64,000 bases of DNA from an uncultured Dehalococcoidia bacterium (lineage in GTDB: Bacteria > Chloroflexota > Dehalococcoidia > Lucifugimonadales > UBA3495). Location: NCBI GenBank assembly GCA_951813535.1, contig OX638345.1:3028608-3092607 (forward strand), given 5' to 3'. Shown piece after piece: positions 20,658-49,239 of this stretch. The notes under the pieces are model-generated. The model worked only from the letters and a program-made list of their open reading frames with translations. It was not told the origin of the DNA and made no database searches. Every line of letters begins with the position of its first letter. Within the stretch, counting starts at the first letter, position 1. The position numbers and the translations under genes are program-made.

Positions 20658-20774
20658 CCCAAATCGGGCAACCCGGTGGCCGCGTACCTGACCGGGCCAT
20701 GCGCCAGGCCCCGGTATGGTACGCTTTGCGGCGCGAATCTACCGTCATCCATGCCCGACCGGAGGTGTACTGAA

Positions 20775-21662
20775 ATGTCTCTGCGTTCCGACCTGAAAAG
20801 CCGGCTGACCGCCGGGGAAACGATTCTCGCCCCGGGCGCCTACGATCCGATGTCGGCGCGAGTGGTGCAGTCTTTGGGGTTCGATACCGTGTACGTGGGC
20901 GGCTACATGAGTGGGGCCCACCTGGCCGTCACCGAGCCGCTCATGACGCTGACCGAGCAGGTCGACGTCGCCCAGCGGGTGGCGAAATCGGTGCCGCTGC
21001 CGGTGATCTGCGACGCCGGCGCCGGCTACGGGGATCCAGTCCACACCATGCACACGGTGCGCACCTTCGAGCGGGCCGGCATCTGCGGCATCCACATCGA
21101 GGACCAGGTGTTCCCCAAGCGGGCGTCATACCACGCCGGCCTGGAGCACGTCATTCCCATGGACGAGTTCCTGGAGAAGATGCGCTACGCCCTGGAAGCC
21201 CGCAGCGACCCCGACTTCCTGATCATCGGCCGCACCGACTCCTTCACCGCTGTCGAGGGCGATATGGAGGATGCGATCCGACGGGGCAATGCCCTGCGTG
21301 ATCTCGGCGTGGACGTGGTGATGCCTCGCGGCGTGCGCCAGCGGGAAGACCTGGCCACCTACCGCGCCGGCGTCCCCGACGTGCCGCTGCTGGTCATCGC
21401 CGGCACCGACGACATCACCGTGCAGGAATACGAAGAACTGGGCTACAAGGTCATCATCTATGCCACAACCCCGGCCATCGCAGCGGTGCAGGGCATCCAA
21501 CAGGCGTACACCAACCTCCGCGACACCGGCCACATCGGCATCGGAGCCGCCGAGGTGGCCCAACGCCGCGCCGAGGTGGAGGCGTTGATCAGCCTGCCCG
21601 AGTACCAGGCGGTGGAAGCGGCCACCACCGAGCGCGAATTCCAGGACCGCGCGCACCACTGA
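20775..21662 (+). CDS. Isocitrate lyase/PEP mutase family protein (methylisocitrate lyase / carboxyvinyl-carboxyphosphonate phosphorylmutase-like)
   Basis: ILAPGAYDPMSARVVQSLGFDTVYVGG..DAGAGYGD..GIHIEDQVFPKR..IIGRTDS. ATG 20775 follows GGAGG. Confidence 0.75.
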   Translation: MSLRSDLKSRLTAGETILAPGAYDPMSARVVQSLGFDTVYVGGYMSGAHLAVTEPLMTLTEQVDVAQRVAKSVPLPVICDAGAGYGDPVHTMHTVRTFERAGICGIHIEDQVFPKRASYHAGLEHVIPMDEFLEKMRYALEARSDPDFLIIGRTDSFTAVEGDMEDAIRRGNALRDLGVDVVMPRGVRQREDLATYRAGVPDVPLLVIAGTDDITVQEYEELGYKVIIYATTPAIAAVQGIQQAYTNLRDTGHIGIGAAEVAQRRAEVEALISLPEYQAVEAATTEREFQDRAHH

Positions 21663-21752
21663 TTGACCGCAGATCTTGGGATGATCGGCTCCGGCGTCGC
21701 TGCCGGGGCCGGCGACGCCGTGCCACGCCTTGATAAAGGGAAGGAGACTATC

Positions 21753-22022
21753 ATGGCTACCGAGAAACGCCGGCGCAGCGATCTGGTGACCCGCGCCCAC
21801 GCCATCTACGACACAGAGCTGCGGCGCAAGCTGGAACCGCACGAACACGGCCGCTATCTGGCCCTGGAGGTCGAGACGGGCGACTATGCGATTGGAGACC
21901 GGTTCAGAGACGCCAACGAAAAGTTGCGGGAACGGCACCCGCTGCCGACTCAGTTTTTTGTCTTTCGCATCGGTTATCCGGCAGCGGTGAAGATGGGCGG
22001 GCATTATGGGGGCAGATTGTGA
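21753..22022 (+). CDS. Small protein (89 aa), upstream partner of the retropepsin-like protease
   Basis: ATG 21753 follows AAGGGAAGGAGA. The stop overlaps the downstream GTG start (GTGA at 22019-22022). GRYLALEVETGDYAIGDRFRDANEKLRERHP..FVFRIGYPA has the look of a small DUF5678-like domain (from memory, unverified). Confidence 0.5.
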   Translation: MATEKRRRSDLVTRAHAIYDTELRRKLEPHEHGRYLALEVETGDYAIGDRFRDANEKLRERHPLPTQFFVFRIGYPAAVKMGGHYGGRL

Positions 22023-35126: not shown

Positions 35127-35155
35127 TGTTGGAACGGGTCTTCATTTGTGATAGA
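35127..35155 (+). promoter_or_regulatory. Candidate promoter of the SelW-like gene, with extended -10
   Basis: TTGGAA-17 nt-TAGAAT with TGa immediately upstream of the -10. About 45 nt upstream of ATG 35201. Confidence 0.45.
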
Positions 35156-35200
35156 ATTCTCAAGGCAGGCGCCAATACACGCTCCATTCGGAGGAGAAAC

Positions 35201-35488
35201 ATGGAAGGAAAGGTTCAGATCGAGATTACCTACTGCGTGCCTTGACAGCACCACGCTACCGCCACGTGGATGGCGAACGAGTTTTTCCGGGCCTACGGCG
35301 GCGACGCCGCTATCACGATCTCCCCGCGCGGACAGAGCATCATGGAAGTGTTCGTGGACGGTGAGAAGATCTTTGATCGGAAGGCCGAGGGCAACATCTA
35401 CCCCGACTTGGGCCGCGTCCGCAAGATGAAGGAAGTCATTTCCGCCAGGATCGCGAGCGCCGACCTCGCCGTGGCCGCCGACAACTAG
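35201..35488 (+). CDS. Rdx/SelW-like thioredoxin-fold selenoprotein (in-frame TGA = Sec at 35243-35245)
   Basis: The ORF track only calls 35270..35488. From ATG 35201 (GGAGGAG 4 nt upstream) the same frame reads MEGKVQIEITYCVP-TGA-QHHATATWMANEFF.., which matches the bacterial Rdx pattern IEYC..C....AAWMA.EL with CxxC replaced by CxxU. Confidence 0.7.
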
Positions 35489-35510: not shown

Positions 35511-35546
35511 AAAGCCGCCGCCCTCACGGGCGGCGGCTTTATTTGG
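35511..35546. terminator. Bidirectional intrinsic terminator between the SelW-like gene and tmk
   Basis: aaagccgccgccc-tcac-gggcggcggcttt followed by atttgg. A/T runs on both sides between convergent genes. Confidence 0.7.
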
Positions 35547-35571
35547 TTGCGCGGAGCTGTTGATAACGCGA

Positions 35572-48216: not shown

Positions 48217-48247
48217 GGGGCGAATCATTGTTCGCCCCTATCTTTTT
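48217..48247. terminator. Hairpin/terminator between the ferredoxin and the convergent LLM gene
   Basis: ggggcgaa-tcattg-ttcgcccc followed by tatcttttt. Overlaps the last codons of the minus-strand gene. Confidence 0.55.
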
Positions 48248-49239
48248 GCGATGACTTCCTCGCCGAAACGACGGATGATGTCCGCCGGGTCCTGGCTGAT
48301 GGCGGTAATCTGCAGCACGTCGGCGCCGGATTCGGCGATCTGACCGACCTTGGCGCGACATTCCTCGGGAGTACCGACCACGGCGAACCGATCAGCCAGG
48401 TAATCGGTCACGCCTAGCTCGTCGGACAACGCTGCGTTGCGGGTTTCTCCGACCTGCTCGTGCTCGGCTGGGACATATTCCCCCTGGATGATCTGCATGG
48501 CCTCGTGCAGTTCAGGCGGCACGTGCTTGCCTTCCAGGGTGAAACGGAACGCGTGGTGCGCGCTGGCGGCCAGGGCCATCCGGATTTCGTCGATTGCCTC
48601 GGCGTGGTCATCGGCGATGTTGCACTTGGCGAAAGCCCAGACTTCAGCGGACCCGGCTGCCTTGCCCGCGTCGGTTTCGCCTTCCCGGATGCGCGATACG
48701 GTGTCGGCCAATATTTCCGGCGTGAGCCCGGTGTGGACCATGACCCGGTCGGCGATTTCTCCAGCCATGTGCAGGGTTCGTGGACCCTCGGCGGACATCA
48801 TGATTGGCACCGGGTCGCTGCTCCAGCGCACATGGCCCTCGCGACCCAAGTATTCCGAAGTTTCACCAGCGAGGAAAGCGCGGACAGCGGCAACGTACTC
48901 GCGAAGCGCGCGCATCCGCGCCGGCCGGAGTCCAAGGTTCAAGATGGCGCTGTCGCCAGTGCCAACGCCGAGGAAGGCTCTGCCCTCGGACAGTTCCTGC
49001 AACGAGGCGATAGCCGAGGCCGTGACCGCGGGATGACGGGTCAGCGGATTGGTGACCGACGGCCCCAGATGCACACGGGATGACTCGGTGGCTGCCACGG
49101 CCAGCGAGACAAATAGCTCGCGAAAGAGCGATTGGGAATCGGCGACCCCTATGTAGTCGAAACCGACCGCCTCGGCGAGGCGAACGTGGCGCCGGAAAGA
49201 TTCGTAGGAATTGGGTAGGAGGGTTACACCGTACTTCAT
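48238..49239 (-). CDS. LLM-class F420/flavin-dependent oxidoreductase
   Basis: MKYGVTLLPN..AEAVGFDYIGVADSQSLFRELF..RVHLGPSVTNPLTRHPAVTASAIASLQELSEGRAFLGVGTG. Confidence 0.85.
   Translation of the reverse strand: MKYGVTLLPNSYESFRRHVRLAEAVGFDYIGVADSQSLFRELFVSLAVAATESSRVHLGPSVTNPLTRHPAVTASAIASLQELSEGRAFLGVGTGDSAILNLGLRPARMRALREYVAAVRAFLAGETSEYLGREGHVRWSSDPVPIMMSAEGPRTLHMAGEIADRVMVHTGLTPEILADTVSRIREGETDAGKAAGSAEVWAFAKCNIADDHAEAIDEIRMALAASAHHAFRFTLEGKHVPPELHEAMQIIQGEYVPAEHEQVGETRNAALSDELGVTDYLADRFAVVGTPEECRAKVGQIAESGADVLQITAISQDPADIIRRFGEEVIAKR

Follow-up and report, generated by a model that had tools for sequence, protein, structure and literature searches.

Selenoprotein W-like (SelW-like) proteins with a CxxU motif in the Rdx domain (PF10262) have been known as a family of bacterial selenoproteins since 2006, and they are listed among the families "predicted with high confidence" (PMC13188914, PMC1794560; the family of Zhang and Gladyshev). 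Bacterial members have about 90-100 residues and a single selenocysteine (Sec), which occupies the second redox position of the motif, and a SECIS element is predicted immediately downstream of the Sec codon within the coding sequence. Cysteine-containing relatives, in which the motif is CxxC, include the solved structures 2fa8 (Atu0228), 2oka, 2obk, 2ojl and 2p0g. Mouse SelW (2npb) shares the Rdx fold and has CxxU with Sec at the same position, although its SECIS is of the eukaryotic type, which differs in architecture and resides in the 3' UTR. The bacterial SECIS (bSECIS), as exemplified by the E. coli fdhF type and the bSECISearch consensus, is a hairpin within the coding sequence 3' of the UGA that exposes G-U in a small apical loop. 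The bSECIS model specifies an apical loop of 3-9 nt, an upper stem with a minimum of 4 bp and a distance of 16-37 nt from UGA to loop, with a G at the first or second loop position that is usually followed by G or U (PMC13188914).

A gene of this kind lies in the window, by which we mean the whole 64-kb stretch of Dehalococcoidia DNA that was analysed. The ORF listing calls only 35270 to 35488 on the forward strand, 72 residues in length, in agreement with the preliminary description of this locus, and translation from the ATG at 35201 likewise bears out its statements that the same frame is open upstream save for one TGA and that it begins behind a strong GGAGGAG Shine-Dalgarno sequence. Read from that ATG, the frame has 95 codons and ends at a TAG (35486-35488), the TGA at codon 15 being the sole in-frame stop before the end; the base that follows it is C, giving a UGA-C context. 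From comparative sequence analysis we conclude, with a probability of about 0.9, that 35201-35488 is a genuine CxxU SelW-like (Rdx) selenoprotein gene in which the UGA specifies Sec at residue 15. The preliminary description had also read the TGA as selenocysteine, and that reading is now supported by the alignment of the TGA with a cysteine column, by its presence in all aligned orthologs, by a constrained hairpin just past it, and by a second TGA-containing gene nearby. The features of the locus are listed in Table 1. One promoter-like site was found upstream, against 0.2 expected in shuffled sequences; together with a predicted terminator-like site downstream it brackets the gene and gives it the look of a monocistronic unit.

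Table 1. Coordinates of predicted features in the 64-kb window, with the details and basis of each.
Feature	Position	Strand	Details and basis
SelW-like (Rdx) selenoprotein coding sequence, predicted	35201-35488	+	Product MEGKVQIEITYCVP-U-QHHATATWMANEFF...AADN; reading frame, Pfam, alignments, conservation
In-frame TGA, predicted Sec codon	35243-35245	+	Second CxxU position (C-V-P-U); conserved in 162/162; alignment with Cys column
Shine-Dalgarno sequence GGAGGAG	35190-35196	+	4 nt 5' of ATG 35201
Promoter-like site	35129-35157	+	TTGGAA-17 nt-TAGAAT, TG preceding the -10 hexamer; consensus match alone
Strong intrinsic-terminator-like hairpin and T-rich tail	35511-35547	+	Hairpin 35511-35540; 13 pairs, 10 of them G-C; 23 nt past the stop codon; consensus match alone
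Frozen synonymous block	35240-35275	+	Codons 14-25, overlapping the Sec codon and the hairpin; entropy of 4-fold sites
Predicted SECIS core hairpin	35260-35275	+	Stem 35260-35264 CGCCA / 35271-35275 UGGCG; loop 35265-35270 CGUGGA; covariation
Alternative hairpin of the preliminary description, not favoured	35251-35269	+	CCACG/CGUGG; mutually exclusive with 35260-35275
DsbA-like gene with in-frame TGA	41222-40590	-	TGA at 41183-41181; reads MAESDFTVYYDFR-U-PFVYN, motif DxxUP; 5.1 kb downstream of the Rdx gene

Membership in the Rdx family depends on the upstream part of the frame. With U written as C, the full product of 95 residues has a Pfam Rdx score of 48.9 bits (cut-off 22.6), residues 6-72 aligning with positions 1-61 of the 74-position profile so that the match starts at the first profile position, whereas the 72-residue ORF alone scores 19.5 bits and falls under the cut-off. 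The rise from 19.5 to 48.9 bits is contributed by the 23 upstream codons, and this arrangement of extension and TGA is far more than would be expected by chance. Neither of two NCBIfam models is matched above its cut-off, with scores of 27.8 against 34.2 for TIGR02174 (CXXU_selWTH) and 32.9 against 88 for NF041051 (SelTWH_Campy), and the protein is therefore outside both of these models and inside Pfam Rdx. In its domain, its length, its single predicted Sec at the second CxxU position and its predicted SECIS, situated in the coding sequence right after the Sec codon, the gene resembles the described bacterial SelW-like genes; the SAR202/Dehalococcoidia clade to which it belongs differs from them in having its own conserved U-QHHATATW segment, in scoring under the two NCBIfam cut-offs, and in a very short predicted SECIS core of 5-6 bp.

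All five solved bacterial SelW-related proteins align without gaps to residues 2-72 and across the TGA (ITYCVPUQ against ITYCTQCQ), albeit at an identity of only about 25-30%; identity to mouse SelW is 16%. In these proteins, as here, the redox motif lies where beta1 ends and alpha1 begins, although it reads CxxC in them (CTQC in 2oka, 2obk and 2fa8) and CVPU in the window, and the TGA occupies the column of the second cysteine. When 1.84 billion representative proteins were searched exhaustively, the nearest Cys forms were found to have CVPC; one of them (P0137) has 53% identity and reads IVYCVPCGHH, and CVPC is also present in four distant Cys homologs (P0139, P0150, P0154 and P0168). The preliminary description had placed the TGA on the second redox position and had suggested aligning it with cysteine-containing homologs; that alignment has now been made, and it confirms the column.

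An AlphaFold2 model was obtained for an ortholog (P0001) that is 83% identical to the window protein, which was itself not the one modelled, with a pLDDT of 83.3 and a pTM of 0.75. Its elements follow the order beta1-alpha1-beta2-beta3-beta4-alpha2, with beta1 ending at the Cys and alpha1 opening at the Sec position. When this model was compared to the PDB with Foldseek, the top 22 matches were all SelW-related or Rdx proteins, mouse SelW among them, and the best of these have TM scores of 0.80-0.87 (by target) and rmsd values of 1.5-2.1 Å. The predicted thioredoxin-like beta-alpha-beta-beta-beta-alpha fold fits the Rdx family and matches that of the Cys-form structures.

Orthologous sequences were collected from two sources. 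A scan of related genomes, using one genome per GTDB species, yielded 80 loci with protein identities of 82-98%, all of them in Dehalococcoidia, SAR202 or sponge-associated Chloroflexota MAGs. The ATG, the Shine-Dalgarno sequence and the TGA at codon 15 are present in each of these species-level genomes (80/80), and the Shine-Dalgarno sequence is invariably purine-rich, of the GGAG type (or AGGAG); the rest of the leader 5' of the ATG has diverged, each position having an entropy of about 1.8 bits. A second scan, run on metagenomes and starting from P0083, a relative with 67% identity, yielded 80 contigs, and these together with L083 make 81 more distant sequences (L083 and L085-L164), all 81 of which keep the TGA. 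Combined with the window, the two collections give 162 aligned orthologous sequences from at least 80 species, and the TGA is found in every one of them.

The nucleotides that follow the TGA are conserved beyond what they encode. Among the 81 marine and sponge sequences the 4-fold degenerate sites of codons 14-25 have a mean entropy of 0.065 bits, compared to 1.14 bits outside this block (Mann-Whitney p = 2.8e-4), and the codons at its two ends are fixed (CCT at codon 14 and GCG at codon 25, both 81/81). The block contains a hairpin that starts 14 nt past the UGA and whose apical loop starts 19 nt past it. Numbering from the U of UGA as position 1, positions 19-27 and 29-32 are invariant in the 162 sequences and position 15 is free, while positions 18 and 33, both of them 4-fold synonymous, covary, being C-G in 154 sequences, G-C in eight and unpaired in none. 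The same closing pair is U-A in two AT-rich pelagic sequences (L167 and L168), which keep the GC-ending codons GCC and ACG within the hairpin despite their drift towards A and T. The covariation concerns one base pair, and the independent events behind it probably number only two or three. Together with the frozen block, this pattern of substitution shows that there is RNA-level constraint just past the UGA, acting on a short predicted hairpin with a compensatory base-pair change.

We favour this hairpin as the candidate SECIS core. Its loop of 6 nt, its stem of 5 bp (6 bp in relatives), the G at the second loop position followed by U, and the spacing of 19 nt all lie within the ranges of the bSECIS model. 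The folding energy is borderline, at -7.4 kcal/mol against the bSECISearch threshold of -7.5, and the local folding energy in the window is no better than that of shuffled sequence; in relatives with a G at position 28 a sixth pair forms, the loop is reduced to the tetraloop GUGG, and the energy is -11.7 to -12.6 kcal/mol. The candidate thus resembles the fdhF type in being an in-frame hairpin 3' of the UGA with G-U exposed in a small apical loop, but it differs in its shorter stem, in its borderline energy and in that no bulged U was identified. The preliminary description had called for a search for a SECIS-like structure past the TGA, and this hairpin, with its covariation and its frozen synonymous sites, is what the search returned.

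Three other structures were considered for this region. The weak hairpin noted in the preliminary description (CCACG at 35251-35255 paired with CGTGG at 35265-35269) does exist, with an energy of -5.8 kcal/mol, and 98.6% of its alignment cells are paired, albeit only by way of His codons where C and U replace each other opposite a G, and with no double changes. As a SECIS it is tolerated but unsupported, leaving the frozen C at 35263 and the covariation of 35260 with 35275 unexplained, and the covarying hairpin takes its place. A pseudoknot combining the two hairpins would have a connecting loop of 1 nt, which we judge to be too short. The minimum-energy hairpin given by RNAfold (35254-35275, -10.2 kcal/mol) was rejected, as the sequence variation contradicts it: of 73 distinct sequences, 36 cannot form one of its pairs, and two other pairs are disrupted by the covarying sites.

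A second gene with an in-frame TGA, likewise unannotated in the window, encodes a DsbA-like protein on the opposite strand. The Pfam DSBA match (56.6 bits) spans the TGA, which aligns with the catalytic Cys of PDB entry 7dk9 (7dka being the Cys-to-Ser mutant) and is kept in 18 of 18 syntenic copies, and DxxUP is the motif of the published selenoprotein family 'DsbA-like protein form 2'. Third positions just downstream, in codons 15-30, are frozen here too (0.058 against 0.487 bits), and the sequence 41177-41136, which starts 6 nt past the UGA, folds into a hairpin of -18.4 kcal/mol. When the window was scanned for coding potential, only the Rdx and DsbA-like genes had an in-frame TGA with coding sequence on both sides, and the same scan over the 80 related loci gave nothing convincing beyond these two. 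The region 20676-22022, which appeared as a TGA-bridged frame, consists of two adjacent genes in the same frame.

The window and the 80 related loci (80 x 20 kb, 1.6 Mb) were also searched for the Sec machinery, by tblastn with E. coli SelA, SelB and SelD and with ARAGORN, and no selA, selB, selD or tRNA-Sec gene was found in either; Rfam and ARAGORN report tRNA-Gly only in the window. A SelD-like match in one related locus (L018) is a ThiL-type kinase adjoining tsaE. SelA, SelB and SelD are listed for the SAR202 bins bin87 and bin22 (Slaby et al. 2017, Table S4), both of which are among our related genomes (L014 and L064, respectively) and carry the Rdx gene with its TGA. SelA and SelB are furthermore enriched in sponge symbionts (Slaby et al. 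2017), and two Dehalococcoidia MAGs are among the top ten bacteria by selenoprotein gene number in BSepDB. We infer from these relatives that the organism of the window has the machinery as well.

That this machinery is known through relatives only is one of two points in favour of a different decoding of the UGA, in which it would be read through as Cys or Trp by a near-cognate or suppressor tRNA, or would have been reassigned in the lineage. The other is a set of full-length metagenome calls that read CVPW or CVAW (P0001-P0007, P0083, P0121, P0138 and P0140; for example L165 250-561). The DNA has TGA at this position, as checked for P0001 and P0083, and the calls are therefore the result of applying a TGA=Trp code to short contigs; they constitute a second kind of mis-annotation beside the truncated one described below. 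Since TGA ends 16 of the 37 long gene-like ORFs in the window, it has not been reassigned. Moreover, in each of two unrelated genes for thioredoxin-fold proteins the TGA coincides exactly with a redox Cys, the hairpin that comes after it is under constraint and conforms to the bSECIS model, and relatives that have the same gene have SelA, SelB and SelD, all of which makes read-through as another amino acid very unlikely.

Alternatively, the TGA could be a true stop that separates a 14-residue leader peptide from an independent 72-residue protein starting at ATG 35270, with the hairpin serving coupling or regulation. This is in effect the model used by the ORF callers and by hundreds of database entries, which are fragments of 71-73 residues without the active site (labelled 'predicted Rdx family selenoprotein' by JGI), and codon 24 is ATG, GTG or TTG, all of them possible starts, in 162 of 162 sequences. 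However, the residues that these codons specify, M, V and L, are those expected at this helix position in the Cys-form homologs, which read AAWLAQE or AGWMAQE there. No Shine-Dalgarno sequence precedes codon 24 in the window, where the ATG itself falls within the 35260-35275 hairpin, and the 72-residue product would lack beta1 and the redox motif and stays under the Pfam threshold. The two parts that a true stop would separate (codons 1-14 and 16-23) instead evolve as one coding frame, without gaps relative to the CxxC homologs. Only one first or second position varies in codons 2-14, compared to 11 of 13 third positions, and codons 16-18 in the metagenome clade show conservative changes only (Q/K/R and H/Y/F/M), with no stops and no frameshifts, which is the pattern expected of translation running through the UGA. 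The substitutions thus show purifying selection at the protein level on both sides of the UGA, and we regard termination at this codon as extremely unlikely.

That the locus is a pseudogene or what is left of a truncated Cys-form Rdx gene, or that the TGA is a sequencing error, is vanishingly unlikely, since the one database sequence with CGA (Arg) at codon 15 (P0008; L084 404-682) is a singleton with several odd substitutions inside a TGA-bearing cluster, whereas 162 independent sequences, representing at least 80 species, all have the TGA, which lies between stretches under strong purifying selection.

The other listed members of the 90% cluster of P0008 are either full-length calls with TGA read as W (P0121, P0125 and P0127) or truncated calls of 69 residues, three of which were fetched; the TGA was confirmed in the DNA for two such calls, P0123 (L167) and P0133 (L168). 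The CGA probably arose in sequencing or assembly, or else by recent mutation. We considered P0008 as a natural control in which Sec is lost and constraint is relaxed, and rejected it because its cluster carries TGA and its changes at positions 18 and 33 form a compensatory U-A pair.

If the UGA is decoded as Sec, as we propose, the product would be a 95-residue thioredoxin-fold Rdx (SelW/SelT/SelH) protein with the redox centre C12-V-P-U15. With the ribosome at the UGA, a SelB-type factor carrying Sec-tRNA(Sec) would bind the hairpin at 35260-35275, the loop of which exposes G-U, and Sec would be inserted in place of termination. The finished protein may act as a small thiol oxidoreductase that cycles between a selenol/thiol and a selenenylsulfide form. 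Gene callers end the upstream frame at the TGA and take ATG 35270 as a new start, and for this reason the gene appears as a truncated 72-residue 'hypothetical protein'. Correcting the gene model recovers a CxxU redox protein, and this protein is conserved in soil, pelagic and sponge-associated relatives alike. Its practical value lies in annotation, the family being already known and the understanding of Sec decoding unchanged, and the covarying hairpin provides a concrete candidate example of a SECIS for this lineage. The presence of two predicted selenoprotein genes within 6 kb fits the published selenoprotein richness of sponge symbionts and of Dehalococcoidia MAGs.

The two TGA-containing genes also have a short sequence in common. 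The motif GCCAYGUGGNNGGCG follows both predicted Sec codons, at 35261-35275 on the forward strand and at 41162-41148 on the reverse strand, in the same reading frame (A-x-W-x-A), and in 1.6 Mb of SAR202 sequence, searched on both strands, it is found in these two genes only. The match extends to 12 of 15 positions, a level that random coding pairs reach at P about 0.024, and this is too weak for us to claim a common SECIS element. The shared motif may represent a core for SelB recognition that is specific to the lineage, or it may merely reflect similar coding for helix 1. SAR202-type Dehalococcoidia are largely aerobic marine and sponge-associated heterotrophs, and they are among the most abundant bacterial groups in the ocean. 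We suggest very tentatively, and with the odds against it, that they may use an unusually minimal, lineage-specific SECIS core, consisting of a GCCA/UGGC stem of 5-6 bp that presents YGUGG. If this were so, the GCCA/UGGC-YGUGG core would, as a SelB recognition element, be a probe for a large and mostly unannotated SAR202 selenoproteome. Run on the window, a covariance model built on the Rdx hairpin failed to recover the element of the DsbA-like gene. Besides the Rdx hairpin itself, the model matched 49164-49186 on the forward strand (CGACCGCC-7 nt-GGCGAACG; 20.1 bits, E about 1e-4), which we judge to be a chance match, as it is antisense to a gene at 48238-49239 and is not associated with an in-frame TGA.

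The 81 metagenome sequences form a sister clade to the sponge and marine sequences, reading MASEWKVLVDIVYCVA-U-KHHATATWVANEFF, that is common in JGI metagenomes and apparently not associated with sponges. All of its members have TGA, many of them in a UGA-A instead of a UGA-C context, and their hairpin has the sixth pair and the GUGG tetraloop. The same gene with its TGA is also present in an AT-rich and apparently free-living lineage (L167 1125-1401, and L168 933-1210 from TARA Oceans), the codon usage of which has drifted towards A and T; in L167, tmk occupies the same downstream position.
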